Assembly: GCA_963699165.1 (NCBI GenBank)
Contig: OY969413.1
Span: 63,506-127,505, forward strand
Direction of reading: 5' to 3'
DNA from: Candidatus Kaiserbacteria bacterium
GTDB taxonomy: Bacteria > Patescibacteriota > Minisyncoccia > Phycocordibacterales > Phycocordibacteraceae
Length of the DNA: 64,000 nucleotides
Shown here in pieces: positions 14,006-63,530 of this stretch (the first letter of the stretch is position 1; each line of letters opens with the position of its first letter). Below the pieces are notes generated by a model that saw only the letters and a list, made by a program, of their open reading frames with translations, made no database searches and was not told where the DNA came from. The translations under genes and the position numbers were made by a program.

Positions 14006-14104
14006 CATTTTCGAAGACCGGGTCGATAAGCCGAATTCTGTCTCGTCCAGCACCAACTTTGCCATCGTTTGGTTTGTGTCAATCCGGACACAATGACAAA
14101 GTTG

Positions 14105-14470
14105 GTGCTGGAGAGCGACGATTATTTATCTGGGACGCCGATTACTCGACGCCTCAAGCGGCACTCCCTAAAACATGCTTCGCATGTTCGCGAAAGCATA
14201 TTTTAAGACACGGCCTTGCATACGGGTAAGGATTTGTTCGTTGCACCTCTTTAGTCACCTAAAGAGCTCATCCCGCTCGATGGCGGGATGCCCGTGCGCT
14301 TTCGCGTACAAGCGTCTCTGTGAGCACCTCTATCCTTGCGGACGACGGGCGTTACCCGCTACCTTGCTCCTGTCGCATCATTACGATGCGCGGATATGTT
14401 CGGACTTTCCTCGCCGAGCATCTTTAAGGTGCTTGGCGCAATCGTCTGACCCGGTCCTCTCTCATTATAC
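14105..14470 (-). ncRNA. rnpB: RNase P RNA (bacterial type A) candidate
   Basis: The minus-strand RNA contains GAGGAAAGUCCGAAC (P4 / CR-I region), GGUAACGCC, GCGAAAGCGCAC and GCUUGAGG elements in canonical order. A P3-like hairpin GCCAAGCA..UGCUCGGC precedes P4, and a possible P2 pairing is GACGAUU / AAUCGUC. It lies in a ~450-bp non-coding gap. Confidence 0.55.
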
Positions 14471-23534: not shown

Positions 23535-23912
23535 ATGCATGACCTGACGCCCTATAAAGACAAACCGTCTGACGAGTGGCTTTCTGTTACAGAGAAGTTG
23601 ATTAAGGAACATCCATTAGGACCTGAAGCGATGGTCGCAGTAGTAAAGAAATCATGGGATCAGATTTTCACGAGCAAAATCGGTGGAGTTATCCAGATAG
23701 GAGAAGAGATCGCCCTTACCCCTCAAATGATTGGTAATTTTCTGCATGTATTAGTTGCACATAATCTTTCAGAGAGCTCGCCGGAACTATGGCGGATAGA
23801 GGCTGCCGCTGGGGAAAAAGATGTTGTGTACGTGCCGGACGACTACTACTCATTGTACCGACCCCTATTCTTCAGACCACTTCCTAGACGAGTGAAGATA
23901 GTGTACGGGTGA
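23535..23912 (+). pseudogene. hypothetical protein, C-terminally truncated by IS-A copy 1
   Basis: The ORF is real-looking up to ~23853. Its last ~19 codons (..RPLFFRPLPRRVKIVYG) are encoded by the IS-A terminal repeat, and the same tail appears wherever IS-A abuts an ORF. Confidence 0.4.
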
Positions 23913-24696
23913 TGTGCGATTTCGCAAACTCTCTCGGTGCCATCTTGAGTGTTGAGTGTATACGCACGGTGTTGTACCGGTGAATTGTCTGATAGATTTC
24001 AGCAACAAGTTCACCAAGCGTATCGAAGCGATTGGGATCGCCCAGATCAGTTTTGAATTTTCCATAGAACGATTCTTGGTACCCGTTCTCCCACGGACAG
24101 CCCTTTTTTGAGCGAGAGATGCTGATGCCGAAATTGATGAGCATCTCTCGGAAGGATGCGGCATTGTATTCCACTCCGTTGTCGCTGTGAAAGATGGTGG
24201 GACGAGGATGGTTGAGAAGTGCCGCGCACAATGCCTGCGTCACAAGTACGGTTCCACCTCGCGTACCAATGGCGAGCCCAACGACACTTCGAGTGTATAC
24301 GTCCATGGTGGTTGCCACACGAATGTCTTTCCCTTTGAAATACACATGAGTGAAATCAGCGACCCATGCTTGATGCGGATAGGCGGGTACAATCCGCATC
24401 AGGAGATTTGGATACTCCACGGCTTGTTTCCTTGATTTCCTCCACCGTCTTCCTCTTCTTCGATATGCTTTGATACCAAAGAGTCGCATGACTCTTTGAA
24501 CCTTCTTTTTGTTCTCCTTGAGATACAGGGCAACTCTCCGGTATCCATACGAAGGAAACTCTCGAAGGACTTCTTCAATACGGCATTTGAGTGCCCAGTC
24601 TTTGTCAGGCTTCTTCTTTTGATACCAGAAGGTGGAACGAGCTATACCAAGAGTACGCGCTGTTGTGCGCGTACCAATCGGAGATTCTTTGCTCAC
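23884..24696 (-). CDS. IS3-family transposase OrfB (DDE integrase core)
   Basis: 270-aa rve domain (..WVADFTHVY..HSDNGVEY..CPWENGYQESFYGKFK..). Confidence 0.85.
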   Translation of the reverse strand: MSKESPIGTRTTARTLGIARSTFWYQKKKPDKDWALKCRIEEVLREFPSYGYRRVALYLKENKKKVQRVMRLFGIKAYRRRGRRWRKSRKQAVEYPNLLMRIVPAYPHQAWVADFTHVYFKGKDIRVATTMDVYTRSVVGLAIGTRGGTVLVTQALCAALLNHPRPTIFHSDNGVEYNAASFREMLINFGISISRSKKGCPWENGYQESFYGKFKTDLGDPNRFDTLGELVAEIYQTIHRYNTVRIHSTLKMAPREFAKSHITRTLSSLV

Positions 24697-24950
24697 TTCT
24701 TTTTTTGGGTTTCAGACAGCTTGAGCGTCATGAGTCCAACAAGACGAAGGAGTTCGTCATTCTCTTTTCGAAGTCTCGCAATCTCAAGAACAGATGCGGT
24801 ACCGTCTTGCACTTTCGCACCAAGCCAGCCATAGATGGTGGTCTCGTGGATACCATGCTCTTTGGCCGCTTGGGCGACAGTGACACCATCGTTCTTGATT
24901 CGATTAATGATTTGTTCCTTCACCTCAGGAGCGATGCGGTATTGCTTCAT
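24693..24950 (-). CDS. IS3-family transposase OrfA (HTH)
   Basis: 85 aa: MKQYRIAPEVKEQIINRIKNDGVTVAQAAKEHGIHETTIYGWL.. with a leucine-zipper tail. Confidence 0.85.
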   Translation of the reverse strand: MKQYRIAPEVKEQIINRIKNDGVTVAQAAKEHGIHETTIYGWLGAKVQDGTASVLEIARLRKENDELLRLVGLMTLKLSETQKKK

Positions 24951-25029
24951 ATGACGTCATTCTAGCGGTTAATCCCGTCTAGAACATGGTCTGAAATTTG
25001 GGGGTCAGGTCAATTGTCATCCATAAGTT

Positions 25030-28586: not shown

Positions 28587-29012
28587 AAGAACTAAAAGAT
28601 ATTAAAAAAACAATAGATAGCGCAAACATTAATTTCTTAATTGGATCAGGGTTGTCTAGTCCTTTTCTAGAAATTCTCAACCAAATTGAAACCAAGCTAA
28701 CGAAAGCAGAAAACGAAAAGAACGATGTTGAAGTTTTAAGATTAATGAAGGAATACTTTGAGAAATCGATGCTTGGAAACCTAAAAATCGTTGCTGAAAT
28801 TACTGATAAGGTTAAAGATGGAGTTCTAAAAAATTATGAAGATTTTTATAAGAAAATTAATCACATAGTTTTAAAGAGGGAGAGTTCCATTCTAACAAAA
28901 CAAATTAATGTCTTTACCACAAACGTAGATATTTTCTCTGAAAAGGCGCTAGAAAATACAGGGATTGGAAGGTACCCCTTTCTTCGTACACTCATTCTAT
29001 AAGTATAGGATA

Positions 29013-29795
29013 CTATGCTCTGCTCAGAGCAACAAACTCTCTTGGCGCCATACGCAGTGCTGAGTGAATGCGAGCGGTATTGTGATAGTGGATGGTGAGG
29101 TAGATCTCAGCCACTAATTCACCTAACGTGTCGAATCGGTTCGGATCACCCAGGTCAATCTTGAACCCTTTGTAGAAGGACTCTTGGTAGCCATTCTCCC
29201 AGGGACATCCAGGACGAGACATAGATTGCTGTATGCCGATCGTTGCCACGAGCATCGCATAATCCTTTGAGGCATACTCGCTGCCTTGATCCGAATGGAT
29301 GACACGAGGTGGCGATTTGTGATGCAATGCAGAGAGAAGTGCATTCATGATGAGTTGCGTGCTGTGGGTGGTGAGGACTGACACACCGACAATCTCTCGG
29401 GAATAGACGTCAAGGATGGTAGCGACGTATACCCAGTACCCGTGGTACTTGAGGTAGGTGAAGTCACTCGCCCAGATGTCACCGTCCTGCTCGGGAGTTT
29501 GATGGAGCAAGAAGTTCGGGAATATACTGTCTTTTGTCTTTAGCACAAATCGCTTCTTTGCGGTCCTCCGATATGGTTTGATACCGAACAATTTCATCAC
29601 ACGCAGAATGCGCTTTTTGTTGACTTTGAGGTAGAGTGCCAACCGTTTGTGCCCATAGGCGGGATGGCTATGCAGAGCTTCTTCGATGAGTTGCTTTGTG
29701 TGCCAATCCCTCCGAGCCTGCTTCGGCTCGTAGTACAGCGTACTGCGAGCAATACCGCTCTCGCGTGCAAGAGCACTCTTGTTTTCTCTCATCAA
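29013..29795 (-). CDS. IS3-family transposase OrfB (IS-B)
   Basis: 260-aa rve integrase core (..HSDQGSEYAS..CPWENGYQESFYKGFK..). Confidence 0.85.
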   Translation of the reverse strand: MMRENKSALARESGIARSTLYYEPKQARRDWHTKQLIEEALHSHPAYGHKRLALYLKVNKKRILRVMKLFGIKPYRRTAKKRFVLKTKDSIFPNFLLHQTPEQDGDIWASDFTYLKYHGYWVYVATILDVYSREIVGVSVLTTHSTQLIMNALLSALHHKSPPRVIHSDQGSEYASKDYAMLVATIGIQQSMSRPGCPWENGYQESFYKGFKIDLGDPNRFDTLGELVAEIYLTIHYHNTARIHSALRMAPREFVALSRA

Positions 29796-30052
29796 GAGCC
29801 CCTTTTTTCTCCGTTTGAGAGTTTAAACGTCAATTCTCCGATGAGTGCTTTAAGGAGACCGTTCTCCTTCTTCACTCTGTTGTGCTCAATGATACTCACT
29901 CCTTTTGCAGAGGTGCCAAGCCAAGCATAGATAGTGACGGTACTGACTCCGTGTTCTTTCGCTGCCTCAGCGACACTGATGCCATCGTTTTTGATACGGT
30001 TGATAATCTGCTCCTTAATCTCAGGAGCAATACGGTATGCTTTCTTTGCCAT
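29792..30052 (-). CDS. IS3-family transposase OrfA (IS-B)
   Basis: 86 aa: MAKKAYRIAPEIKEQIINRIKNDGISVAEAAKEHGVSTVTIYAWL.. Confidence 0.85.
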   Translation of the reverse strand: MAKKAYRIAPEIKEQIINRIKNDGISVAEAAKEHGVSTVTIYAWLGTSAKGVSIIEHNRVKKENGLLKALIGELTFKLSNGEKRGS

Positions 30053-31010
30053 AGGTACATTCTAAATTAGCTGCTGGTATTTAGAATGAGTGTCCGACGT
30101 TTGGGGTACCTTGCAGATCGATTTTAATGATGGTTTCAACGGAAGATTCAATCCTAAATATGATGTGGGAAATTTCAAGAAGTCTTATTTCAAGAAGAGT
30201 CTTCATTATGAGAACACGTCCGAAATACCTGTATTTAATATACTGAAGTTACACGGGTCTCTTTCTTGGAAAGAAACTGATAGAGAGATTTATTTGGATA
30301 GTGTCTTGGAACAAGTAAAAGAAGTCGAAAATAATAAAGTGTCTGAATTTTATGATTGTTTCAAAAAATTGATGGTCGTTAATCCAACTAAACAAAAGTT
30401 TGGAGACACATTATTAAATCAACGCTACTACGACTTGCTCAGAATTTTCTCTAACGAACTAGAGAAGGATAATACCGTACTATTCGCGATGGGCTTTTCA
30501 TTTATGGATGAGCACATTTACGACCTAACATTGAGAGTTGCAAATTCTAATCCTACTCTGAATATTTACATATTTAGTCACGGCTCCAAACCGAGTGATA
30601 CCTATCTAAAACTGGAAGCGGATGCTAAAAATAAAAATATAAAAATCCTTATTCCGGAAAGTGGAAAAGAGTACAGTCTAGAAACAATAACTTCAGACTG
30701 TTTTGATAAGATTATTCTCCCTGAAAAAGAGGTTGGCAAAGGGCTTATAGATACTTCATTGCCACAAAAAGATGACTGACGACCTTACCTTAATGGAGAA
30801 ATACATAATTGATAACTCAATTTTTAGAATTGGGAAGGTTATTGAAATATCAGGTCAATCTGTAAAAGTAAAAGTAGATACTGGGAAAAACACATCCTCA
30901 ATCTTGTATAAGGGGGAGATAATGCAAAATATTTCTGTACAAGGATATGTGAAAATAAAGAAGTGGAAGGTACCCCTTTCTTCGTACACTCATTCTATAA
31001 GTATAGGATA

Positions 31011-31793
31011 CTATGCTCTGCTCAGAGCAACAAACTCTCTTGGCGCCATACGCAGTGCTGAGTGAATGCGAGCGGTATTGTGATAGTGGATGGTGAGGTA
31101 GATCTCAGCCACTAATTCACCTAACGTGTCGAATCGGTTCGGATCACCCAGGTCAATCTTGAACCCTTTGTAGAAGGACTCTTGGTAGCCATTCTCCCAG
31201 GGACATCCAGGACGAGACATAGATTGCTGTATGCCGATCGTTGCCACGAGCATCGCATAATCCTTTGAGGCATACTCGCTGCCTTGATCCGAATGGATGA
31301 CACGAGGTGGCGATTTGTGATGTAGCGCAGAGAGAAGTGCATTCATGATGAGTTGCGTGCTGTGGGTGGTGAGGACTGACACACCGACAATCTCTCGGGA
31401 ATAGACGTCAAGGATGGTAGCGACGTATACCCAGTACCCGTGGTACTTGAGGTAGGTGAAGTCACTCGCCCAGATGTCACCGTCCTGCTCGGGAGTTTGA
31501 TGGAGCAAGAAGTTCGGGAATATACTGTCTTTTGTCTTTAGCACAAATCGCTTCTTTGCGGTCCTCCGATATGGTTTGATACCGAACAATTTCATCACAC
31601 GCAGAATGCGCTTTTTGTTGACTTTGAGGTAGAGTGCCAACCGTTTGTGCCCATAGGCGGGATGGCTATGCAGAGCTTCTTCGATGAGTTGCTTTGTGTG
31701 CCAATCCCTCCGAGCCTGCTTCGGCTCGTAGTACAGCGTACTGCGAGCAATACCGCTCTCGCGTGCAAGAGCACTCTTGTTTTCTCTCATCAA
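31011..31793 (-). CDS. IS3-family transposase OrfB (IS-B copy 2)
   Basis: Identical to 29013..29795. Confidence 0.85.
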   Translation of the reverse strand: MMRENKSALARESGIARSTLYYEPKQARRDWHTKQLIEEALHSHPAYGHKRLALYLKVNKKRILRVMKLFGIKPYRRTAKKRFVLKTKDSIFPNFLLHQTPEQDGDIWASDFTYLKYHGYWVYVATILDVYSREIVGVSVLTTHSTQLIMNALLSALHHKSPPRVIHSDQGSEYASKDYAMLVATIGIQQSMSRPGCPWENGYQESFYKGFKIDLGDPNRFDTLGELVAEIYLTIHYHNTARIHSALRMAPREFVALSRA

Positions 31794-32050
31794 GAGCCCC
31801 TTTTTTCTCCGTTTGAGAGTTTAAACGTCAATTCTCCGATGAGTGCTTTAAGGAGACCGTTCTCCTTCTTCACTCTGTTGTGCTCAATGATACTCACTCC
31901 TTTTGCAGAGGTGCCAAGCCAAGCATAGATAGTGACGGTACTGACTCCGTGTTCTTTCGCTGCCTCAGCGACACTGATGCCATCGTTTTTGATACGGTTG
32001 ATAATCTGCTCCTTAATCTCAGGAGCAATACGGTATGCTTTCTTTGCCAT
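31790..32050 (-). CDS. IS3-family transposase OrfA (IS-B copy 2)
   Basis: Identical to 29792..30052. Confidence 0.85.
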   Translation of the reverse strand: MAKKAYRIAPEIKEQIINRIKNDGISVAEAAKEHGVSTVTIYAWLGTSAKGVSIIEHNRVKKENGLLKALIGELTFKLSNGEKRGS

Positions 32051-33246
32051 AGGTACATTCTAAATTAGCTGCTGGTATTTAGAATGAGTGTCCGACGTTT
32101 GGGGTACCTTGCATAAAGAATTGCCATTAATAGACAATACTTGTTTTTTACTCACAAAAGAGGAGTTTAATAAAATCCATGAATTTGTTAATAAAGATGA
32201 CAAACCTATCGAAATAGGAAGATTGGAATACGACGATGGTCAAAAAATAGAACTAGGCATAAACAAATTATTTGCTAGCCATATAGGTATATTTGGTAAT
32301 ACTGGAAGCGGTAAATCATATACGCTCGCAAAAATCTATAGAGAATTATTCAAAATCTTTAAAGATAGTCCGAAATTTCAAAAAAATGCAAAGATCTTCC
32401 TGATTGATTTTAATGGCGAATATATTGGAGAACTGGAAGAGAGTACTGGTAAATACAAAAGTAGAGATGTAATCGTTGAAGAGAAATATAAGAATATATA
32501 CGAACTAACGACGAGAAAAAAGATTGAAGATATTACGGAAGAAGAAAAGTTTCCTATCCACGAATCAGCAATAAAAGATTCTACGTTTTGGTCAATTTTT
32601 CTCTCGGCAACTGAAAAGACCCAGATACCTTTTTTGGAGAGAGCTATTAGAGATACTTATATTGAAGAAAGATTGAAGAAAGAGAAATCTTTTAAAGACC
32701 TTCTTAGTGCCAAGATATTTGATGCAGTAACACAAATAGACAAAAAGACCGAGAAGAGTGTAATAACGGATTTGTTAAACGAATTATTTCATTATTTAGA
32801 TAAAAACGAATCTATAAAAGAAGCGGAGAAATACTTCAGAGAGAACTACGGTATTTTCCAAAAGGAGGGAAAATCAGTATTTAAGTTAAATAAAAATAAT
32901 GCAGATCACTACTCGGATAATGCTAATGACATAAAGACATTTCAGGATGATATAAATGAGCAGGTTGCAAAAATATCGGAAGTAAAAGTCGACGAACTGT
33001 CCACAATAAAGAGATTGGGGCTACAAATCATAATTAAATACTACGATGAAATGATTCGTGGATTTTCAAACAGAGAACATCTCTCTCCTTTGATCAAGCG
33101 ACTTGACCAAAGGATTTTGGATCTAGAGAAGGTCTTAGTAGTAGTGGAAAAAATCAGTAAATCTGAAAAGAACTTCACTGTTATTGACCTGACCCCCAAA
33201 TTTCAGACCATGTTCTAGACGGGATTAACCGCTAGAATGACGTCAT

Positions 33247-33504
33247 ATGAAGCAATACCGCATCGCTCCTGAGGTGAAGGAACAAATCATTAATCGAATC
33301 AAGAACGATGGTGTCACTGTCGCCCAAGCGGCCAAAGAGCATGGTATCCACGAGACCACCATCTATGGCTGGCTTGGTGCGAAAGTGCAAGACGGTACCG
33401 CATCTGTTCTTGAGATTGCGAGACTTCGAAAAGAGAATGACGAACTCCTTCGTCTTGTTGGACTCATGACGCTCAAGCTGTCTGAAACCCAAAAAAAGAA
33501 GTGA
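33247..33504 (+). CDS. IS3-family transposase OrfA (IS-A copy 2)
   Basis: Identical to 24693..24950. Confidence 0.85.
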   Translation: MKQYRIAPEVKEQIINRIKNDGVTVAQAAKEHGIHETTIYGWLGAKVQDGTASVLEIARLRKENDELLRLVGLMTLKLSETQKKK

Positions 33505-34313
33505 GCAAAGAATCTCCGATTGGTACGCGCACAACAGCGCGTACTCTTGGTATAGCTCGTTCCACCTTCTGGTATCAAAAGAAGAAGCCTGACAAAGACT
33601 GGGCACTCAAATGCCGTATTGAAGAAGTCCTTCGAGAGTTTCCTTCGTATGGATACCGGAGAGTTGCCCTGTATCTCAAGGAGAACAAAAAGAAGGTTCA
33701 AAGAGTCATGCGACTCTTTGGTATCAAAGCATATCGAAGAAGAGGAAGACGGTGGAGGAAATCAAGGAAACAAGCCGTGGAGTATCCAAATCTCCTGATG
33801 CGGATTGTACCCGCCTATCCGCATCAAGCATGGGTCGCTGATTTCACTCATGTGTATTTCAAAGGGAAAGACATTCGTGTGGCAACCACCATGGACGTAT
33901 ACACTCGAAGTGTCGTTGGGCTCGCCATTGGTACGCGAGGTGGAACCGTACTTGTGACGCAGGCATTGTGCGCGGCACTTCTCAACCATCCTCGTCCCAC
34001 CATCTTTCACAGCGACAACGGAGTGGAATACAATGCCGCATCCTTCCGAGAGATGCTCATCAATTTCGGCATCAGCATCTCTCGCTCAAAAAAGGGCTGT
34101 CCGTGGGAGAACGGGTACCAAGAATCGTTCTATGGAAAATTCAAAACTGATCTGGGCGATCCCAATCGCTTCGATACGCTTGGTGAACTTGTTGCTGAAA
34201 TCTATCAGACAATTCACCGGTACAACACCGTGCGTATACACTCAACACTCAAGATGGCACCGAGAGAGTTTGCGAAATCGCACATCACCCGTACACTATC
34301 TTCACTCGTCTAG
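33501..34313 (+). CDS. IS3-family transposase OrfB (IS-A copy 2)
   Basis: Identical to 23884..24696. Confidence 0.85.
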   Translation: MSKESPIGTRTTARTLGIARSTFWYQKKKPDKDWALKCRIEEVLREFPSYGYRRVALYLKENKKKVQRVMRLFGIKAYRRRGRRWRKSRKQAVEYPNLLMRIVPAYPHQAWVADFTHVYFKGKDIRVATTMDVYTRSVVGLAIGTRGGTVLVTQALCAALLNHPRPTIFHSDNGVEYNAASFREMLINFGISISRSKKGCPWENGYQESFYGKFKTDLGDPNRFDTLGELVAEIYQTIHRYNTVRIHSTLKMAPREFAKSHITRTLSSLV

Positions 34314-36083
34314 GAAGTGGTCTGAAGAATAGGGGTCGGTACACTTTGCCTCCTTCGCTCTTATAAGAAGATTCTGTGCGGGATTGTATCCACCTCTCGT
34401 TGTTTCCTGCTTTACGATAAGTTCTTGGTCGGCATCCTTCTCGTTTAACGGATATGGCGGCGGAGGCGTATATGAACCTTCTGGAATGCGAATCTTTCCC
34501 GCCAAACGATCGCGCATTTCCGAAAACGCAAACCATAGCGCCATCAGTGCATCGCCAGTGTGGCCATCGGGGAACGCTCGCATTTCATTTACGAGTTGCG
34601 CGACGAGTTGTCGCGTTCGCGCGTCACTCTGACTATAAGGAAGGATGATCTTCCTCTGTTCAAAGAGAACCGCTAAACTATTCACGCCGATCGCTGGGTC
34701 ATTCTTTTCTCCGCCGGTCTTGTAGCTGGTGACGAGTGCACCGGAGTCGCCCAAGTCGCGATACATCATTTCCTGAAATCCGTTCGTCTCGACACGAGTT
34801 GCGGTCGGTCTCACGATCGCTTCATTGCGGATGACCATATCGCACGTTTCTTTCGGTGAGAACTTCCCGCGCCGTATGTTGCGAAGCACATAGTCGCCAA
34901 CTTTAAAAGTTCCGTCCGTTGAGCCGCGGAGAACACGGTCGAGAGTGAGAAGAACGGTGTCGTCATTCCAATTCTCGGTAGCGATAGCGAGATCGAGACC
35001 AGCGGTTGTCATTTCCACGTCATACTCGGTATACGGCGCGTCTTGCAAGATCAAGTCCTTGCCCTTAGCAAGTGCTGCTTCAATGTCCTTCTCAAGGAAC
35101 TTCTGATTCGGACGAATTGAAGGATCACACATATACATGCGTGCGAAGGCATATGGATTGGCGATGCGTTTCAGATAAAGATCTCCGTACGAGAAACGCT
35201 CCGGCCAGAGGACATCTATACCTTCCTCCATTTCCGCTTTATGCTCGGCACGATACTCGCTCGCTTTTGCTGTTTTTTCTTCAGGTGAAAGCGATTCATC
35301 GAGATGGATATTTGCCCATTCCTGCCACATATCCTGACGATTCGCTTCGTGCAGTATCGATGGTACGCGTTTTCTCACTTGAAATTGCGGGTCCTTGAGA
35401 AGATTGTTCATCAAGTCGTCCATGTGCCATGTGTTGCCAAGACAGATGAGACGACCGTCCGTCATTAAGACCGGCAGAAGCGTCGTGTATACCCAATCCT
35501 TGATCTTCGCACGCTGCTCCTCGGTCGCGGCGTTTTCCTGCGTCACCACATCATCAAGAATGATGATATCGGCACGCTTGGAAACGATTGACCCGAAGAG
35601 ACCGACGGCATTTACAGTCGGATCTTTTAGATTCAGTCCTTCGCGCTCGACCGTGAAAGAACTTCCGGTCCAATGTTCCTCACGTTTCTTTCCGTGACGC
35701 AGGCGCGGGGCGACACTGCGACGCTTCGGGTCGATCATCTTCGACCAAAGTCGATATTTCGGATTGCGCTCGATGTGCCCAATGATATCTGAAACGAATC
35801 CACGCGCGATTTCGCCAGTGCTCGATACGAGAAGAATGCGAATCTCGCGATTTTTGGCGATCTCCCAGAGAGGGTATGCGATGGAGCTATGGGTTGATTT
35901 ACCAAAACCGCGCGGCATCGCGATGGCGAGTTTTTGATAGGTATAGTTGGAGAGAGCATCGTCAAGTTCGTCCTGAAACGGCGCATTGTTTAGACCAATA
36001 ATTTCGGACACGAAGACGCGAAAATGCTCGGCCGCTATCGCGCAAAAGACGGCCGCTTCTTCAAGTTTTGGAATGTTACCCAT
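34302..36083 (-). CDS. terL: phage terminase large subunit (ATPase + nuclease); last ~14 codons supplied by IS-A copy 2 (C-terminally truncated)
   Basis: It has Walker A AMPRGFGKST and Walker B IIILDDV, followed by a C-terminal RNaseH-like nuclease domain. The start is taken at MGNIPKLEEAAVF; the longest ORF begins at 36122. Confidence 0.75.
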   Translation of the reverse strand: MGNIPKLEEAAVFCAIAAEHFRVFVSEIIGLNNAPFQDELDDALSNYTYQKLAIAMPRGFGKSTHSSIAYPLWEIAKNREIRILLVSSTGEIARGFVSDIIGHIERNPKYRLWSKMIDPKRRSVAPRLRHGKKREEHWTGSSFTVEREGLNLKDPTVNAVGLFGSIVSKRADIIILDDVVTQENAATEEQRAKIKDWVYTTLLPVLMTDGRLICLGNTWHMDDLMNNLLKDPQFQVRKRVPSILHEANRQDMWQEWANIHLDESLSPEEKTAKASEYRAEHKAEMEEGIDVLWPERFSYGDLYLKRIANPYAFARMYMCDPSIRPNQKFLEKDIEAALAKGKDLILQDAPYTEYDVEMTTAGLDLAIATENWNDDTVLLTLDRVLRGSTDGTFKVGDYVLRNIRRGKFSPKETCDMVIRNEAIVRPTATRVETNGFQEMMYRDLGDSGALVTSYKTGGEKNDPAIGVNSLAVLFEQRKIILPYSQSDARTRQLVAQLVNEMRAFPDGHTGDALMALWFAFSEMRDRLAGKIRIPEGSYTPPPPYPLNEKDADQELIVKQETTRGGYNPAQNLLIRAKEAKCTDPYSSDHFLDE

Positions 36084-50340: not shown

Positions 50341-51042
50341 GGCCACGCATAATTTTCTGCTGAAAATTTGCGCGGCTCCTAAAGGACTGCGGTTTGTATG
50401 CCAATCGCTTCGCTCTTGGACAAACCGGAAGCCCTCCTCGGGCCTCATTCAGCAGAATGACCTACTGGGGTCGCCCTGCGGCTTTCGAGTCCCTTACTGC
50501 GCTACAAAACAATAATCGCCACACGCTTCGCGTATGACTCGTTTGTTTTGTGGCGGGACTCGGTCACGAATAATTCGTTCGCCGCCGCTCACGAATTTTC
50601 GCGACCCCGTCTCGGCCACGCACTCGCTTCGCTCGCGCGGCTTCGCGGCCTCCGACTTTCGAGTCCCTTACCGCGCTACAAAATGATAGTCGCCGGTCAC
50701 TTTCGTGACCGGCTCCTTCATTTTGTGCGCGGGCTCGGCCACGCATAATTTTCTGCTGAAAATTTGCGCGGCCCCGCCTCCGGCCGTCGCCGTCCGGCTT
50801 TCGAGTCCCTTACCGCGCTACAAAACAATAATCGCCACACGCTTCGCGTATGGCTCGTTTGTTTTGTGGCGGGACTCGGTCACGAATAATTCGTTCGCCG
50901 CCACTCACGAATTTTCGCGACCCCGTCTCGGCCACGCGCTCGCTTCGCTCGCGCGGCTTCGCGGCCTCCGACTCTCGAGTCCCTTACTGCGCTACAAAAC
51001 AATAATCGCCACACGCTTCGCGTATGGCTCGTTTGTTTTGTG
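50341..51042 (+). repeat. complex tandem repeat array containing four copies of a tRNA-Val 3'-end fragment (TTCGAGTCCCTTACCGCGC)
   Basis: There are two full 174-bp units (~50483-50656 and ~50800-50973) plus a 67-bp partial unit, interleaved with a variant unit (~50657-50799). Each unit starts with CTTTCGAGTCCCTTACYGCGCTACAAAA. The motif GGCCACGCATAATTTTCTGCTGAAAATTTGCGCGGC recurs at ~50341 and ~50737. The ORFs here are repeat artefacts. Confidence 0.7.
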
Positions 51043-51125: not shown

Positions 51126-51537
51126 CGGTCACGATCAGAACTGGACACTTTAGACACTACATAGCGTGTTCCACCAGTGTCCTGTTTTCGGGATTCCAGC
51201 AAGCCTTTCAAGGGTATTTGAGAGATTCGGAGCCTTAACCCACCATCCCGGAGGGAGTCCAACGGTACCGCACCAAAAAACGAACAAACCGAACACGAAA
51301 GCGCATATTTTGAGTGTTCGTATTCTGTTCGGTTCTGGAGGCTCATAGGCACCCAATTCGTGAGACAGGTGTCTCATTTGCCCTCCACAGCATGGCTTAT
51401 TTGCTCAATATGAGACAAATGAGACACAAAAGAGGGGTATTTGGGGTGTCTCATTTGTCGAAGTTAAAATGCCAATAAATGCCAATTTTTGAGAATGTGT
51501 AAGAAATAAAAACAAGGATACATATGTTGCATATGTG

Positions 51538-52563
51538 TCAAAGATTTCGGCTTCGGTTTGTATCTGCGCCGAGGGTGATTGCCACCTTGGTTTTAGGGAT
51601 AAGCGCCGCGAGCGTGTGCGCGTTGCCGTGCGAGAGCAGTCCTCGGTACGATGCGAGTGTAGCCTCCTCCGGTTCTCCTTGGAGCGCCTTGAGCATCCTT
51701 CGCTTGGTGCTGGTGCGCAGCACGTCGTGATCGGGGAAATGCACCCAGCCGAGAAAGTCGATGCCTGACGCGAGGGTGGAGATGGAGACCTTGTTCGGGT
51801 GCAGCTCGAGCTTGAGCGTATCGCGCAGGTATTCGCGTATGTGCGGCAGTAGCGCTTCAAGCTCGATTCGATCCATTGAGAGCACTACGAAGTCGTCGGC
51901 ATAACGGAGGTAGTAGCGGGCTTTGAGGCGATGCTTCACCCATTGGTCGAACTCGTTCATGTACACGTTCACGAGGAGCTGGCTGGTGAGGTTGCCGAGC
52001 GGGAGACCCTTCCCCGGCGTGCCGGAGCGGAAGCTCTCGATTACGTTTTGGAGCAGGGCGAGCGTGCGCTCGTCGTTGACGTGATTGCGCAAAATGCCGA
52101 GGAGCACTTCGTGATCGATGGAGGCGAAGAACTTGCGCACGTCGCACTTGAGTACCCACAGCGTCTTGGTGTGATTCTTGCTCGCTTTGTACGCATAGCG
52201 CTTGAAGGCGGCTATGGCGCGATGGGTACCCTTGTCGAGGCGGCAGGAGTACGAGTCGGGAATGAAGGTGCGATTGAAATAGGGATAGAGAACTCGATAG
52301 ATGGCGTGATGCGTGAGGCGGTCGCGCACTCGTGCCTTGTGAATGTCGCGGGGCTTGGGGTCACTAATCCTGAAATGCGAATACGGGCCGTGGCGATAGG
52401 TGCCGGACGCCAGCTCGTCATGGAGTTGCGAGATGTTTTCAACAAGGTTGTACTCGAAAGCCTGCACATCTTTCTTCTGCCGCTTGCCGCGTATAAATTC
52501 TTTCCATGCGTCGAGCAGATTATTGGGAGAAATGATACTTTCGTATGTATGAGTGATTTCCAT
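51538..52563 (-). CDS. diversity-generating retroelement (DGR) reverse transcriptase
   Basis: The RT domain carries the YADDFVV (YxDD) box and the DGR-specific LPLGNLTSQLLVNVYMNEFD motif. The N-terminus resembles DGR RTs (..RGKRQKKDVQAFEYNLVENISQLHDELASGTYRHGPYSHFRISDPKPRDI..). The start is taken at MEITHTYE; the longest ORF to 52779 adds a GC-rich low-complexity leader. Confidence 0.85.
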   Translation of the reverse strand: MEITHTYESIISPNNLLDAWKEFIRGKRQKKDVQAFEYNLVENISQLHDELASGTYRHGPYSHFRISDPKPRDIHKARVRDRLTHHAIYRVLYPYFNRTFIPDSYSCRLDKGTHRAIAAFKRYAYKASKNHTKTLWVLKCDVRKFFASIDHEVLLGILRNHVNDERTLALLQNVIESFRSGTPGKGLPLGNLTSQLLVNVYMNEFDQWVKHRLKARYYLRYADDFVVLSMDRIELEALLPHIREYLRDTLKLELHPNKVSISTLASGIDFLGWVHFPDHDVLRTSTKRRMLKALQGEPEEATLASYRGLLSHGNAHTLAALIPKTKVAITLGADTNRSRNL

Positions 52564-52604
52564 TCTTTTAGTTCCCCCCCCCCGCAATCGCCCCTGACAA
52601 GCTC

Positions 52605-52964
52605 GTGCCGGTGGTGTTGAAACTAAAGGAAGCATACCTCGCGTGGCAGCAGGCGCTTCCGCATGTCGCCAAGGCGCGGCGGCAGACCGTGGGGGCGCGG
52701 ATCGATGGGGCGCTCCTCGACACGCTTGAGCACGCCTTTCGTGCCGGGTATGCCTCGGGCACTCGCAAGCTGGAGGCACTTGAGTATTCGATCGAGAAAC
52801 TCGATGCCGCGAGGTTCTTCCTGCTTGTGGGCTGGGAAAGCGCCGCGCTCACGAACGCGCAGTACATGCGCATAGCAGGACTCTTAGTGGATGCGAGTAA
52901 GATGCTCGTCGGGTGGAAGGCGTATATGGAAAAGAAAACTCCCGCGAATAGCGAGAGAAAGTAA
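52605..52964 (+). CDS. putative Avd-like four-helix-bundle accessory protein, encoded on the strand opposite to RT/TR
   Basis: 119 aa with a GTG start. Its helical heptad pattern (LKEAYLAWQQA.., ..LEALEYSIEKLDAARFFLLVGWESAALTNAQYMRIAGLLVDASKMLVGWKAYM) resembles DGR Avd / 23S-IVS four-helix-bundle proteins. The same-strand ORF over this region (52568..53062) is Ser-rich and not protein-like. Confidence 0.4.
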   Translation: MPVVLKLKEAYLAWQQALPHVAKARRQTVGARIDGALLDTLEHAFRAGYASGTRKLEALEYSIEKLDAARFFLLVGWESAALTNAQYMRIAGLLVDASKMLVGWKAYMEKKTPANSERK

Positions 52965-52967
52965 GAC

Positions 52968-53079
52968 GAGTTTCGGACGAGGAGTCGATTGTCAGCGTTC
53001 CAGCGATTGTCGTTGCCGAGCCTGTTGACGTTCGCGTTCCACCTCGAGTCGTCGCGATTCACGTTGGCGACCGAGACGC
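52968..53079 (-). repeat. DGR template repeat (TR), 112 bp
   Basis: It is 102/112 identical to the VR. All 10 differences sit at adenines of the TR sense (minus) strand: 9 A->G and 1 A->C. TR codons are rich in AAC/AAT (Asn). Confidence 0.85.
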
Positions 53080-53319
53080 TATGTGCCGCTCACCATCCAT
53101 ACCACCGCCCATCGAATGCTCTCCGGGCTGTATCTGATTTGAGGCCGTGAGCCCGCAAGCGGGCGACACCAACTTGAATTTCTTTTTTCGGGCGTTTATA
53201 CCCGGAACCTCGCCACCCGAAGCCCGAGGGCCGCAAATGCCAGCGTGTTCGTATAAAATTATACCCCTCTTCGCGCAAGCGCGAAGAGGGGTAATTCGAG
53301 GAAGCCCGAATACAGGGAC

Positions 53320-54015
53320 TTAGGATCCCAGTTTCGAAGCGTCCAAGTTGCGGACGAGGAGCCGATCGTCAGCGTCCCAGCGATCGTCGTTGCCGAGCCT
53401 GCTGACGTCCGCGTTCCACCTCGAGTCGCCGCGATTCACGCCGGCGACCGAGACGCTGCCGTTCTTGTCTTCGACGAAGAACCAGTTGGCCCAGCCGTCG
53501 GTGCGCATGCCGGTATTGCCCGGCTTGCTCTCCGTGGCCTCGACCATGGCCTCGGCTTGCGCCAACGTCATGGTGTGGCCGCGCTCTATGAGGAGCGCTG
53601 CCAGCTTCTCGATCGAAGTGTCCGCGGGAACGCCGAGGACAAACGCTGCCCATTGCGCGAACGTCGCGTCCCGCGAGGGAGTGAGCGTCGTGATGGTGCA
53701 GGCGGCCGCTTCAGGCTGTTCCTTGGGGAGCCAGCCGTCGAAGTCGCTGTCGCGGTACGCATAGCGCGAGGCGGTGAAGCACTTCTTCGTCGGCTTGCCA
53801 ACGACCACAGCGAGCTCTGTCGTCGCGGAAGCGGAAAGCAATGCGGCCGGTGCAGTTGCGCTCTCCGGTGGCACGAGGCCAGCAAGGAACTTCTTGGTCG
53901 CGGCGGGATTGTTCATCCAGCCGTCCATGATCTCGTCGGTCAGCGTGTCGGGAAAATTCTGGATCATGAACCCCGCGAATGCGGCGGTTTTCTTGTCGTA
54001 GGCCTTCGCACTCAT
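53320..54015 (-). CDS. DGR target (variable) protein with a C-terminal ligand-binding VR, probably a C-type-lectin/FGE-like fold
   Basis: 231 aa. The C-terminal ~40 residues are encoded by the VR, with the upstream ..GWANWFFVED.. motif common in DGR targets. Confidence 0.75.
   Translation of the reverse strand: MSAKAYDKKTAAFAGFMIQNFPDTLTDEIMDGWMNNPAATKKFLAGLVPPESATAPAALLSASATTELAVVVGKPTKKCFTASRYAYRDSDFDGWLPKEQPEAAACTITTLTPSRDATFAQWAAFVLGVPADTSIEKLAALLIERGHTMTLAQAEAMVEATESKPGNTGMRTDGWANWFFVEDKNGSVSVAGVNRGDSRWNADVSRLGNDDRWDADDRLLVRNLDASKLGS
53346..53457 (-). repeat. DGR variable repeat (VR) at the 3' end of the target gene
   Basis: It encodes ..NRGDSRWNADVSRLGNDDRWDADDRLLVRN.., where TR would encode NRDDSRWNANVNRLGNDNRWNADNRLLVRN. 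It ends ~24 nt before the target stop codon. Confidence 0.85.
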
Positions 54016-54133: not shown

Positions 54134-55033
54134 TCAAGGCGTTGTACGCGTCCAGTACTTTTGGCAGTCCCCGACGGTTAATGTCGACACAATATACCGC
54201 AAGGGGGACACCATGCCGAGCGACTGGTGCGGGCGTTTGGTGTTGTACCAGATCAGCCAGTCGACAAGCTTCAGATTGAAGGAATGAATATCGTCCCGCA
54301 GCAGGCCCCGATTCAGCATGATGAAGTCCTCGGAGACGGTGCGATTGAATCGTTCGACGTGGGCATTCATCTTGGGAGTGCGGGGGCGGGTGTGAAAGTG
54401 CGTGAGCCCGAGTTCGGCACAGGCATCCTCGAAGTGTTTGGCGAACTCGCTCCCGTTGTCGGTCTGCAACTCGTCGATATCGAAGGGGCAAACCTCGATG
54501 ACTCGGCGAAGGAAGTCGTCCGCGCTTCTCGACGAGTGGTTCGTATACGCGCCCGCAAAGGCGAACTTCCGCTCCACGTCCACTGCCGTGAGGACGTACC
54601 GCTTCACGCCGTCGATGAAGCGGACGACGGTATCGAGCTCCATGCCGCGCTTGCCGGTGCGGCGAAGCTTGGTACGGCGTTTCTGCGGTGTTTCCGTGTG
54701 ATTGCCCGTACGTGCGTGGAACGAGAGCCGGCTCTGCTGCGGGAGCAGACCGCGGTTCTTCAAATCCAGAATGACCCGCCCAACGTATGACTCCGACACG
54801 GAGTACCCTTCTTCGCGCAGGAGAACGGCAAGCTTTGCTTTCCCAAGCCGGGGATGCGCCTGTCGTTCGCGGATGATGAAATCCTCGACCTCGGGCAGAA
54901 CAGTCCTCCTTCGACGCGCCTTCGGCGCAGTGCTCTTCGGGTCAAGTGCATCAATGCGGCCCTCGTGGGCTTTGAGTTCCTCCTTCCAGCGATACAAGGT
55001 GCGCTCCGAGGTGCCAAAGGCGTCGTATGCGGC
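54134..55033 (-). pseudogene. IS481-family transposase, 5'-truncated by IS-A copy 3
   Basis: rve integrase core (..LQTDNGSEFAKHF.., ..HVERFNRTV..). The N-terminal HTH begins abruptly at the IS-A boundary (~55034). Confidence 0.7.
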
Positions 55034-55095
55034 TGACCTGACCCCCAAATTTCAGACCATGTTCTAGACGGGATTAACCGCTAGAATGACGTCAT

Positions 55096-55353
55096 ATGAA
55101 GCAATACCGCATCGCTCCTGAGGTGAAGGAACAAATCATTAATCGAATCAAGAACGATGGTGTCACTGTCGCCCAAGCGGCCAAAGAGCATGGTATCCAC
55201 GAGACCACCATCTATGGCTGGCTTGGTGCGAAAGTGCAAGACGGTACCGCATCTGTTCTTGAGATTGCGAGACTTCGAAAAGAGAATGACGAACTCCTTC
55301 GTCTTGTTGGACTCATGACGCTCAAGCTGTCTGAAACCCAAAAAAAGAAGTGA
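55096..55353 (+). CDS. IS3-family transposase OrfA (IS-A copy 3)
   Basis: Identical to the other IS-A orfA copies. Confidence 0.85.
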   Translation: MKQYRIAPEVKEQIINRIKNDGVTVAQAAKEHGIHETTIYGWLGAKVQDGTASVLEIARLRKENDELLRLVGLMTLKLSETQKKK

Positions 55354-56162
55354 GCAAAGAATCTCCGATTGGTACGCGCACAACAGCGCGTACTCTTGGT
55401 ATAGCTCGTTCCACCTTCTGGTATCAAAAGAAGAAGCCTGACAAAGACTGGGCACTCAAATGCCGTATTGAAGAAGTCCTTCGAGAGTTTCCTTCGTATG
55501 GATACCGGAGAGTTGCCCTGTATCTCAAGGAGAACAAAAAGAAGGTTCAAAGAGTCATGCGACTCTTTGGTATCAAAGCATATCGAAGAAGAGGAAGACG
55601 GTGGAGGAAATCAAGGAAACAAGCCGTGGAGTATCCAAATCTCCTGATGCGGATTGTACCCGCCTATCCGCATCAAGCATGGGTCGCTGATTTCACTCAT
55701 GTGTATTTCAAAGGGAAAGACATTCGTGTGGCAACCACCATGGACGTATACACTCGAAGTGTCGTTGGGCTCGCCATTGGTACGCGAGGTGGAACCGTAC
55801 TTGTGACGCAGGCATTGTGCGCGGCACTTCTCAACCATCCTCGTCCCACCATCTTTCACAGCGACAACGGAGTGGAATACAATGCCGCATCCTTCCGAGA
55901 GATGCTCATCAATTTCGGCATCAGCATCTCTCGCTCAAAAAAGGGCTGTCCGTGGGAGAACGGGTACCAAGAATCGTTCTATGGAAAATTCAAAACTGAT
56001 CTGGGCGATCCCAATCGCTTCGATACGCTTGGTGAACTTGTTGCTGAAATCTATCAGACAATTCACCGGTACAACACCGTGCGTATACACTCAACACTCA
56101 AGATGGCACCGAGAGAGTTTGCGAAATCGCACATCACCCGTACACTATCTTCACTCGTCTAG
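55350..56162 (+). CDS. IS3-family transposase OrfB (IS-A copy 3)
   Basis: Identical to the other IS-A orfB copies. Confidence 0.85.
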   Translation: MSKESPIGTRTTARTLGIARSTFWYQKKKPDKDWALKCRIEEVLREFPSYGYRRVALYLKENKKKVQRVMRLFGIKAYRRRGRRWRKSRKQAVEYPNLLMRIVPAYPHQAWVADFTHVYFKGKDIRVATTMDVYTRSVVGLAIGTRGGTVLVTQALCAALLNHPRPTIFHSDNGVEYNAASFREMLINFGISISRSKKGCPWENGYQESFYGKFKTDLGDPNRFDTLGELVAEIYQTIHRYNTVRIHSTLKMAPREFAKSHITRTLSSLV

Positions 56163-56192
56163 GAAGTGGTCTGAAGAATAGGGGTCGGTACA

Positions 56193-56756
56193 AGTTTAAA
56201 CGTCAATTCTCCGATGAGTGCTTTAAGGAGACCGTTCTCCTTCTTCACTCTGTTGTGCTCAATGATACTCACTCCTTTTGCAGAGGTGCCAAGCCAAGCA
56301 TAGATAGTGACGGTACTGACTCCGTGTTCTTTCGCTGCCTCAGCGACACTGATGCCATCGTTTTTGATACGGTTGATAATCTGCTCCTTAATCTCAGGAG
56401 CAATACGGTATGCTTTCTTTGCCATAGGTACATTCTAAATTAGCTGCTGGTATTTAGAATGAGTGTCCGACGTTTGGGGTACCTTGCATACTGACTCCGT
56501 GTTCTTTCGCTGCCTCAGCGACACTGATGCCATCGTTTTTGATACGGTTGATAATCTGCTCCTTAATCTCAGGAGCAATACGGTATGCTTTCTTTGCCAT
56601 AGGTACATTCTAAATTAGCTGCTGGTATTTAGAATGAGTGTCCGACGTTTGGGGTACCTTGCAACGGTTGATAATCTGCTCCTTAATCTCAGGAGCAATA
56701 CGGTATGCTTTCTTTGCCATAGGTACATTCTAAATTAGCTGCTGGTATTTAGAATG
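56193..56756 (-). mobile_element. three nested/tandem partial copies of the IS-B orfA-proximal end (~294, ~172 and ~93+30 bp)
   Basis: All three fragments share the IS-B end ...GTCCGACGTTTGGGGTACCTTGCA. The first (56193..~56488) includes a truncated orfA (56159..56425, different C-terminus). The second is ~56489..56663. The third (~56664..56756) is split by IS-A copy 4 and continues at ~57916..57945. Confidence 0.7.
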
Positions 56757-56786
56757 TGTACCGACCCCTATTCTTCAGACCACTTC

Positions 56787-57599
56787 CTAGACGAGTGAAG
56801 ATAGTGTACGGGTGATGTGCGATTTCGCAAACTCTCTCGGTGCCATCTTGAGTGTTGAGTGTATACGCACGGTGTTGTACCGGTGAATTGTCTGATAGAT
56901 TTCAGCAACAAGTTCACCAAGCGTATCGAAGCGATTGGGATCGCCCAGATCAGTTTTGAATTTTCCATAGAACGATTCTTGGTACCCGTTCTCCCACGGA
57001 CAGCCCTTTTTTGAGCGAGAGATGCTGATGCCGAAATTGATGAGCATCTCTCGGAAGGATGCGGCATTGTATTCCACTCCGTTGTCGCTGTGAAAGATGG
57101 TGGGACGAGGATGGTTGAGAAGTGCCGCGCACAATGCCTGCGTCACAAGTACGGTTCCACCTCGCGTACCAATGGCGAGCCCAACGACACTTCGAGTGTA
57201 TACGTCCATGGTGGTTGCCACACGAATGTCTTTCCCTTTGAAATACACATGAGTGAAATCAGCGACCCATGCTTGATGCGGATAGGCGGGTACAATCCGC
57301 ATCAGGAGATTTGGATACTCCACGGCTTGTTTCCTTGATTTCCTCCACCGTCTTCCTCTTCTTCGATATGCTTTGATACCAAAGAGTCGCATGACTCTTT
57401 GAACCTTCTTTTTGTTCTCCTTGAGATACAGGGCAACTCTCCGGTATCCATACGAAGGAAACTCTCGAAGGACTTCTTCAATACGGCATTTGAGTGCCCA
57501 GTCTTTGTCAGGCTTCTTCTTTTGATACCAGAAGGTGGAACGAGCTATACCAAGAGTACGCGCTGTTGTGCGCGTACCAATCGGAGATTCTTTGCTCAC
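56787..57599 (-). CDS. IS3-family transposase OrfB (IS-A copy 4)
   Basis: Identical to the other copies. Confidence 0.85.
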   Translation of the reverse strand: MSKESPIGTRTTARTLGIARSTFWYQKKKPDKDWALKCRIEEVLREFPSYGYRRVALYLKENKKKVQRVMRLFGIKAYRRRGRRWRKSRKQAVEYPNLLMRIVPAYPHQAWVADFTHVYFKGKDIRVATTMDVYTRSVVGLAIGTRGGTVLVTQALCAALLNHPRPTIFHSDNGVEYNAASFREMLINFGISISRSKKGCPWENGYQESFYGKFKTDLGDPNRFDTLGELVAEIYQTIHRYNTVRIHSTLKMAPREFAKSHITRTLSSLV

Positions 57600-57853
57600 T
57601 TCTTTTTTTGGGTTTCAGACAGCTTGAGCGTCATGAGTCCAACAAGACGAAGGAGTTCGTCATTCTCTTTTCGAAGTCTCGCAATCTCAAGAACAGATGC
57701 GGTACCGTCTTGCACTTTCGCACCAAGCCAGCCATAGATGGTGGTCTCGTGGATACCATGCTCTTTGGCCGCTTGGGCGACAGTGACACCATCGTTCTTG
57801 ATTCGATTAATGATTTGTTCCTTCACCTCAGGAGCGATGCGGTATTGCTTCAT
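57596..57853 (-). CDS. IS3-family transposase OrfA (IS-A copy 4)
   Basis: Identical to the other copies. Confidence 0.85.
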   Translation of the reverse strand: MKQYRIAPEVKEQIINRIKNDGVTVAQAAKEHGIHETTIYGWLGAKVQDGTASVLEIARLRKENDELLRLVGLMTLKLSETQKKK

Positions 57854-57945
57854 ATGACGTCATTCTAGCGGTTAATCCCGTCTAGAACATGGTCTGAAAT
57901 TTGGGGGTCAGGTCAATGAGTGTCCGACGTTTGGGGTACCTTGCA

Positions 57946-63476: not shown

Positions 63477-63530
63477 TACATTATAGTGTAATACTACCTA
63501 TATAATATAACAAGCTATATACTCTGGATA

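Follow-up and report, generated by a model that had tools for sequence, protein, structure and literature searches.

The 64,000-nucleotide stretch analysed here (contig OY969413.1 of a Candidatus Kaiserbacteria bacterium, positions 63,506 to 127,505; hereafter the window) carries a diversity-generating retroelement (DGR), in which a small gene resembling the accessory gene avd lies on the strand opposite to the template repeat (TR), the reverse transcriptase (RT) gene and the target gene with its variable repeat (VR). An earlier note on this DNA had assigned RT, TR and target to the minus strand, and to the plus strand a 119-aa open reading frame (ORF) with a GTG start at 52605..52964; these coordinates all hold. 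The run of ten C residues that it located at about 52574-52583, between the RT start and the ORF, occupies exactly 52574..52583 within the 41-bp gap between both genes. In window coordinates, the cassette comprises the following features:

51538..52563, minus strand: RT gene (341 aa; ATG at 52563, stop at 51538)
52564..52573, minus strand: the 10 nt separating the G-run from the RT ATG, AACTAAAAGA
52574..52583: C10 on the plus strand, equal to G10 in RT sense, inside the 41-bp gap between avd and RT
52605..52964, plus strand: avd, 119 aa from a GTG start; it converges with TR and diverges from RT
52969..53080, minus strand: TR, 112 nt, with 29 A and 7 AAC
53262..53293, minus strand: GC-rich hairpin of 14-15 bp with a U-rich tail, located ~53 nt downstream of VR
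53320..54015, minus strand: target gene (231 aa, from the ORF list), with VR at its 3' end, the C-terminus of the protein
53346..53457, minus strand: VR, a 112-nt repeat with 91% identity to TR

All ten mismatches between TR and VR lie opposite TR adenines, which account for 29 of its 112 bases (chance of about 1e-6). The RT matches RVT_1 (E=1.6e-24) and displays LGNLTSQ at residue 189 and YADD at residue 221; a motif-4 signature of the type (I/L)GxxxSQ together with YxDD marks the RTs of DGRs. The avd gene is separated by 41 bp from the RT start and by 5 bp from the TR end. A Pfam scan of the 231-aa target ORF gave no match, and homologous ORFs of about 234 aa occupy the target position in two related loci (L001 and L003). 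The hairpin at 53262..53293 received a terminator-like call, shows compensatory changes and is kept across the locus alignment; it is either the terminator of the target gene or a cruciform-like element of the DGR, and its distance from VR is greater here than in Bordetella. The locus is an intact DGR with RT, TR and target all on the minus strand. Overall, we consider it very likely that the best explanation is a DGR of architecture B3 with an Avd protein, whose cassette appears to be built from separate, closely packed expression units.

The earlier note had tentatively read the plus-strand ORF as an Avd encoded antisense to TR and RT, and had proposed a profile search for it. This search aligned residues 1-105 with positions 1-103 of the 104 positions of the NCBIfam Avd model NF033474 (E=7.5e-8), covering the full length of the model at a score below its curated cut-off. 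The Pfam model bAvd (PF22296) gave a weak match (E=0.029), and one Avd homologue (P0054) has a precomputed PF22296 match. Database searches with the 119-aa protein returned 56 homologues with 55-92% identity and lengths of 98-185 aa (nearly all 98-147). An AlphaFold (AF2) model built on 34 homologues was confident (pLDDT 88.3, pTM 0.80) and consists of four long helices spanning residues 2-20, 23-49, 52-78, and 84-111. When this model was compared with the PDB using Foldseek, the best 23 matches were all to entries 2GSC, 2RLD, 4DWL, 8UB7, 8UBB, 8UBE, and 8UB8, with template modelling (TM) scores of 0.61-0.87 (mostly 0.73-0.87) and a sharp drop after them. Among these, 2GSC and 2RLD represent the S23/IVS four-helix family (PF05635), 4DWL is the Avd of the Bordetella phage, and 8UB7, 8UBB, 8UBE, and 8UB8 are bRT-Avd ribonucleoprotein entries. 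The protein is basic, with an isoelectric point of 9.69.

Several observations weigh against the assignment to Avd. The NCBIfam match scored 32.6 bits against a curated cut-off of 80 and the Pfam match 15.3 bits against 40, and a narrow profile of the 34 closest homologues recovered no Avd among PDB sequences, its sole match being a ribosomal P0 protein (E=0.46). The link to Avd was drawn instead from the NCBIfam match and the fold comparison. Third-codon positions of the plus frame are near-free across 28 homologous genes (normalised entropy 0.76-0.89), which identifies the plus frame as the coding frame; the minus-strand ORF over the same DNA (52568..53062), which the earlier note had regarded as junk, indeed has no family match. 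An alternative holds that the plus-strand ORF is spurious and that the cassette has no avd. While it can draw on the Pfam and NCBIfam scores below the curated cut-offs, it conflicts with the 56 homologues, the free synonymous variation in the plus frame, the resemblance of a confident four-helix model to Avd structures and a position beside RT that is kept in about 90 loci. We consider this alternative extremely improbable, and it is already refuted. Profile, fold and genomic context agree with each other, leaving little doubt that the ORF encodes a genuine Avd accessory protein and that the cassette is a member of B3.

In passages of Wu et al. (2018; Nucleic Acids Res 46:11, PMC5758913), B3 is described as TR-(avd)-RT with avd on the reverse strand, and this architecture makes up 90% of the DGRs from the candidate phyla radiation (CPR) in their set. 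The orientation, which the earlier note had called unusual, is so only when compared to the Bordetella prototype, as B3 had already been defined for CPR (PMC5758913) and a reversed avd was present in all relatives with a 5' flank and an RT at least 44% identical. A genome collection provided 45 RT relatives with 55-75% identity, 44 of them titled as Patescibacteria-group/CPR or unclassified 'bacterium' metagenome-assembled genomes and one (L048) labelled Gammaproteobacteria. Every relative from this collection with a 5' flank had an Avd homologue directly upstream of RT on the opposite strand. The same reverse-strand upstream Avd was found in 32 metagenome loci, in loci retrieved via exact Avd proteins and in 16/16 IMG/VR viral contigs with RTs 44-63% identical. 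For RTs at 30-39% identity, Avd, where detected (11 loci), lay upstream on the same strand, which is the canonical arrangement. A protein without likeness to Avd, combined with same-strand avd genes in homologous DGRs, had been named in the earlier note as the outcome that would overturn its reading; profile, fold and homologous loci all revealed the opposite. Among CPR DGRs, the locus is an ordinary representative of the known B3 class. Two relatives differ in gene content: the Patescibacteria contig JBBTQV010000016.1 (L049) carries two DGR RTs (114-1046 and 3501-4439) about 3.4 kb apart, and in VFSW01064580.1 (L058; Avd 91% identical) two successive targets with VR-like ends apparently lie downstream of one TR. 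The latter appears to be a two-target version of the same cassette.

With avd inserted backwards between TR and RT, the cassette appears to consist of separate, tightly packed expression units, thereby accommodating the reversed gene. Comparative analysis of the DNA around TR points to two RNA elements on the minus strand:

53077..53251, minus strand: putative TR-RNA leader, about 175 nt, non-coding and structured, directly 5' of TR, after the VR-proximal hairpin
52929..52957, minus strand: putative TR-RNA 3' element, a 7-bp hairpin (52957..52939) and a U-tract (52938..52929), lying in antisense within the final ~12 codons of avd

The consensus structure of the leader predicted by RNAalifold contains 42 pairs in 6 helices, with double changes at 18 pairs. 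Pairing is possible in 97.8% of cells compared to 36-45% with slid partners, and 0/500 shuffles equalled the observed values. A sequence profile of the leader (nhmmer) found it in 75 loci, and the matches listed (30 genome loci and four viral contigs) were all on the RT strand and upstream of avd. Neither the leader nor the hairpin matched an Rfam family at gathering or E-value thresholds. At one point of the leader, L050, L053, L006, L068, and L070 carry an optional insertion of about 57 nt with hairpins of its own, and many loci have a second optional hairpin ahead of the closing helix; such modular variation is typical of structured RNAs.

The 3' element of the window reads CTCTCGC-TATTC-GCGGGAG, followed by UUUUCUUUUC, and was called terminator-like, as was the same hairpin and U-tract in L001. 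Hairpin and U-tract are positioned 12-40 nt past the TR end on the TR/RT strand. When stems were searched for with the U-tract as anchor, 51 of 57 unique loci yielded one of 7 bp or more that runs directly up to a UUUU(C/G)UUUU tract, compared to 36% in a composition-preserving shuffle control, a null that is high because the arms are pyrimidine- or purine-rich. MAFFT alignment followed by RNAalifold returned no structure for this hairpin, as variable loop lengths misaligned the 5' arm. The stem pairs themselves change in a compensatory manner (CUCCCGC/GCGGGAG, CUCUCGC/GCGAGAG, CUCUUCCGC/GCGGAGGAG, CCCCGCC/GGCGGGG). Some loci have the element across or past the avd stop, and it is therefore independent of the coding frame. 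On the opposite strand, the U-tract and the 3' arm correspond in antisense to the EKKTP motif at the Avd C-terminus. Synonymous entropy of avd falls to 0.31 in the last window of the gene, where the E109, K110, and K111 codons are invariant, and the rest of avd showed no comparable synonymous-site constraint among the 28 homologues. With the constraint confined to the final ~12 codons, there is no sign of a conserved antisense RNA in the remainder of the gene.

According to excerpts of Handa et al. (bioRxiv 10.1101/2023.10.23.563531), 'Avd-binding stem-loops' are predicted just downstream of TR in 207/278 Avd-containing DGRs, CPR included. The 3' hairpin of the window is probably such a predicted Avd-binding stem-loop. 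The conserved U-tract and the end of the antisense constraint suggest that it would also mark the end of the TR RNA, although it may be solely an Avd-binding stem-loop and not a terminator. We have moderate confidence that TR is transcribed into an RNA of its own, which runs towards avd and overlaps no more than its last codons. Alternatively, TR and RT could be co-transcribed on a single long RNA that crosses avd in antisense, as in Bordetella TR-brt, with the hairpin merely binding Avd. Strand and order match this prototype, and the stem-loops of Handa et al. are predicted just downstream of TR in CPR DGRs as well, but co-transcription accounts poorly for the UUUU(C/G)UUUU tract conserved behind the hairpin in nearly all loci, for a conserved -10-like hexamer 7 nt ahead of the RT ATG and for a synonymous-site constraint confined to the last ~12 avd codons. 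We regard co-transcription as possible but rather doubtful.

The homopolymer between avd and RT cannot be put down to chance. C10 is the sole G/C homopolymer of at least 7 nt in the window, and G/C runs of this size occur almost nowhere else in ~330 kb of related loci. A G-run of at least 6 (RT sense) was present within 110 nt upstream of RT in 60 of 69 unique loci, the loci counted being those with a 5' flank and an RT identity of 52% or more; where inspected, the run lay in the avd-RT gap. Its length ranges from 6 to 17 with a mode of 9-10, and is distributed as 6 (4 loci), 7 (4), 8 (8), 9 (17), 10 (14), 11 (8), 12 (4), and 17 (1). In L049, each of the two RT copies is preceded by a G-run of its own (G10 and G7). 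Many independent projects have recovered the run at this position, in a total of 60 unique loci (72 contigs prior to deduplication), which refutes an assembly artefact, a claim related to the spurious-ORF reading and just as improbable. The window's own Avd protein is not on record elsewhere in the contig index. The homopolymer is lineage-specific, as most B3 DGRs on viral contigs do not have it; since these sister DGRs mostly have no run at all, it is not needed by the B3 architecture. On sequence comparison, the homopolymer reads as a conserved hallmark of this clade.

On the RT side, a TAnnnT hexamer adjoins the run in 35 of 60 loci, compared to a background of 1.2% per position, and in 28 of 60 the ATG follows exactly 13 nt past the run, which corresponds to the hexamer plus 7 nt. 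Several other genes of the window also have a -10-like hexamer resembling TAnnnT 6-8 nt ahead of their ATG (for example those starting at 16975, 39689, 43693, and 49005), many long ORFs in the window have no Shine-Dalgarno (SD) sequence, and G is enriched 1-2 nt 5' of TAnnnT-like hexamers across related loci. These features suggest that leaderless mRNAs may be frequent in this genome. In the close family, TTGCGA is found 7 nt ahead of the run, and the modal run of 9-10 would give a 16-17-nt spacer.

Four points speak against a promoter at this position. In the window copy, 10 rather than 13 nt follow the run and AACTAA replaces TAnnnT; a consensus promoter scan of 52300..53400 detected no sigma-70-like site; the -35-like TTGCGA at the right spacing is limited to the close family; and L005, L007, L010, L014, L016, L035, and others have no canonical RT start between the run and the HTY motif. 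A promoter of the classical -35/-10 type, whose 16-17-nt spacer would contain the run, was rejected, as it fits the close family and neither the distant members nor the window copy. L015, L028, L030, L036, and L039 likewise have no ATG, GTG or TTG between the repeat tract and the HTYxxII motif of RT. In that subgroup the RT frame is open through the tract, so that the G-run reads Gly-Gly-Gly, and TTG or CTG lies just 5' of the tract in L005, L007, and L008. The run may be located inside the RT ORF in the loci without a canonical RT start.

On the avd strand, two features overlap the beginning of the RT gene:

52533..52541, plus strand: extended -10-like motif TGATACTTT, within RT codons 8-11
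52549..52620, plus strand: avd-sense ATG, the reverse complement of the CAT codon of RT His5, opening a 23-codon ORF

The arrangement of TGnTAnnnT, 7 nt and ATG is present on this strand in 44-48 of ~59 unique loci. Synonymous variation in the first 15 codons of RT is reduced to 0.61 compared to 0.88-0.96 elsewhere. In line with this, His5 is encoded by CAT in 46/47 loci, compared to 80:93 at other His positions (p=4e-12), and Ile10 by ATC in 51/59 when compared to other Ile positions (Fisher p=7e-9). The 23-codon ORF reads the C-run as Pro-Pro-Pro, and its TGA stop overlaps a TTG in the avd frame at 52617. With C10, avd is not in the frame of this leader ORF, whereas a run of 11 or 8 C would fuse the two. 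Among 44 loci, the leader ORF is fused to avd in 9 and in the other two frames in 20 and 15. Fusion of the leader ORF in frame to avd accounts for the Avd gene calls of 132-147 aa among the database homologues (13/56). A 'long Avd', translated from the antisense ATG through the poly-Pro stretch, was discarded as a selected product, as the fusion frame in only 9/44 loci is at chance level.

Taken together, these signals can be arranged into a model of how the cassette might be expressed. Based on the comparative analysis, TR would sit in a self-contained non-coding RNA composed of covarying leader, TR, and hairpin with U-tract, in which the 3' hairpin probably serves both as the element bound by RT/Avd and as the RNA end. 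If the TR RNA ends at the hairpin, TR transcription need not cross avd in antisense, and with a self-contained TR RNA the RT needs a promoter of its own. The remaining steps are suggested by sequence signals only. The RT promoter would be the TAnnnT hexamer that in relatives adjoins the G-run, 7 nt before the ATG, and this layout of a -10 element followed by the start codon, as at other window genes, suggests a leaderless or nearly leaderless RT mRNA. Transcription in avd sense would start from the extended -10 inside RT codons 8-11, 7 nt before the ATG complementary to RT codon 5, and the resulting RNA would bear the C-run within its first ~40 nt. The homopolymer would then lie both within the upstream spacer of the RT promoter and within the translated 5' leader of the avd RNA, so that its length might in principle determine the geometry of the RT promoter as well as the frame in which the avd leader ORF is read. 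We propose this promoter and leader role only tentatively, and consider control of expression by the run length, which the earlier note had suggested for either gene, plausible as a hypothesis.

Two other accounts of the homopolymer have to be weighed against this promoter and leader role. It might be a slipped-strand contingency switch, in which gain or loss of G/C residues toggles RT transcription and/or the frame of the avd leader and renders the DGR phase-variable, or it might be static, acting as an SD-like G tract for RT, as a rigid spacer or insulator between back-to-back promoters, or as a protein-binding site. G/C runs of 9-10 fall into the size range of known phase-variable tracts. 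Contingency loci have homopolymers of at least ~8 nt, either in promoter spacers or early in an ORF, and the C10/G10 lies in the avd-sense leader ORF. The wide spread of 6-17 between lineages and the existence of all three leader-ORF frames (9, 20, and 15 loci) would likewise fit a switch. The same applies to the different simple repeats at the position of the run in L039 and L040, both (GA)n, and L019 (a heptamer repeated six times), and to the scaffold N-gaps located exactly at the run in L029, L032, L044, and L091. One group of contigs with identical flanks even differs in length (C9 in L092, C10 in L059, C11 or more and then a gap in L091). However, in comparisons of assembled consensus sequences, the run was constant in 9/10 groups of contigs from different samples with identical or near-identical Avd, including one group of six contigs that all have C10; two low-quality contigs with apparent extra C's were discounted, as they have other A-to-C errors too. 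Moreover, interrupted tracts retain a total of 9-10 (C4TC5 in L054, C2AC6 in L051, G6TG3 in L031), arguing for a role in spacing rather than mutability. Consensus sequences hide minority alleles, and both the gaps and the one-base differences may be poly-G sequencing artefacts.

This stability among near-identical contigs argues for a static element, as does the fact that the run is strongly conserved in position and keeps a fixed distance of 13 nt from the RT ATG, and a G-rich sequence could pair with the anti-SD. On the other hand, 13 nt between run and start are long for an SD, many genes here are SD-less, a separate AGGAG lies between run and RT in one subgroup, and sister B3 DGRs mostly manage without a run, some of them with abutting start codons. 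As the main explanation for the run, an SD of RT was ruled out on the grounds of the 13-nt spacing, the SD-less genes and the separate AGGAG. We hold a static element to be possible, if questionable, and a switch to be unlikely; a heritable, reversible length switch that gates the retroelement through RT promoter geometry and/or the frame of the avd leader, across a large Patescibacteria DGR clade, would be an equally unlikely reading of the sequence patterns.

The surroundings of the DGR are rich in repeats and transposase genes. Four 100% identical insertion sequence (IS) copies of about 1160 bp (23853-25014, 33183-34347, 55034-56193, and 56753-57917; two per orientation) each contain an ORF with HTH_Tnp_1 (85 aa) and an rve-integrase ORF (270 aa) in an IS3-like layout, and two inverted copies are located about 1 kb past the DGR target gene. 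A different rve/rve_3 transposase (304 aa, HTH_32 at its N-terminus; 54134-55048, minus strand) directly adjoins the target gene, which places the DGR at the edge of a mobile-element cluster. Stretches of 100% identity at a spacing of 1998 nt and duplicate 261-aa ORFs ending near 29795 and 31793 were observed at 28966-32115, suggesting a recent tandem duplication of about 2 kb or a repeated element; a 298-nt piece of this region recurs at 56193. Closer to the DGR, the DNA from a TauD-family gene to the 3' end of RT contains two 234-nt direct repeats (50461-50694 and 50777-51010; 94% identical, 316 nt apart), for which Tandem Repeats Finder reported no array. About 80 nt downstream of the RT stop, 51414-51459 holds a perfect 14-bp inverted repeat (GACAAATGAGACAC, 18 nt, GTGTCTCATTTGTC), and a GAGACA motif similar to it is found at ~51360. 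A bacterial RNase P class A RNA (14011-14457, minus strand, 122.5 bits) and six tRNA genes indicate that the window is chromosomal and not phage DNA.

A backwards avd is already in the literature, and this feature alone makes the locus one more example of a CPR-type DGR. To our knowledge, based on full-text literature searches, three other features have not been described: the clade-wide homopolymer next to signals that resemble promoters and start sites on either strand, the encoding of the 3' hairpin and U-tract of the TR RNA within the C-terminal codons of Avd, and the covarying TR leader RNA. The passages of Wu et al. (2018) contain no mention of promoter, intergenic or G-rich, and homopolymer, leader and hairpin were not looked for in them. 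These three features would be refinements of a known system. They provide a concrete, testable picture of how a compact cassette might be expressed, with a stand-alone TR RNA whose 3' hairpin lies antisense in the Avd C-terminus, two overlapping divergent start sites and a lineage-specific homopolymer at their junction. DGR regulation in nature is poorly understood, and control of RT/Avd output by tract length, if true, would offer a simple handle on it as well as a design rule for engineering minimal DGRs. If the length acted as a switch, the targeted hypermutation machine of a large Patescibacteria DGR clade would be under stochastic on/off control; if tract length exerts no control, the locus is an ordinary B3 DGR.

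Phase-variable repeats are well known from (TA)n at the divergent hifA/hifB promoters of Haemophilus influenzae, poly-G/C at porA and opc of Neisseria, and poly-C at the fim genes of Bordetella. With those loci the cassette shares a homopolymer upstream of a -10-like hexamer (adjoining the run in 35/60 related loci, not in the window copy), between divergent genes and in the 5' part of an ORF. Unlike them, the consensus length is stable here in 9/10 near-identical groups.

When compared to the DGR of the Bordetella phage BPP-1 (mtd-avd-TR-brt), the window shares the adenine-specific differences between TR and VR, an RT with the LGxxxSQ motif, a basic four-helix-bundle Avd (TM 0.73-0.81 to 4DWL and the bRT-Avd entries; 0.67 for one 8UB8 chain) and a stem-loop just 3' of TR. 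In contrast to BPP-1, avd is found between TR and RT on the opposite strand, TR is preceded by a non-coding leader RNA of its own instead of by the end of avd, a short 3' spacer overlaps avd in antisense, and a homopolymer precedes RT.

The sister B3 DGRs on IMG/VR contigs (L094-L108 and L124; RTs 44-63% identical) have the reversed avd directly upstream of RT as well, and the leader RNA is detectable in L094, L095, L097, and L103, whereas most of them have no homopolymer. At 44-51% RT identity (seen in L101 and L108), the starts of avd and RT abut or overlap (CATATG, CATG), with no intergenic DNA in between. With respect to the CPR B3 DGRs of Wu et al. (2018), there is no architectural difference: the window holds one adjacent target gene, and target with VR, TR, reversed avd and RT follow each other in the same order and on the same strands.

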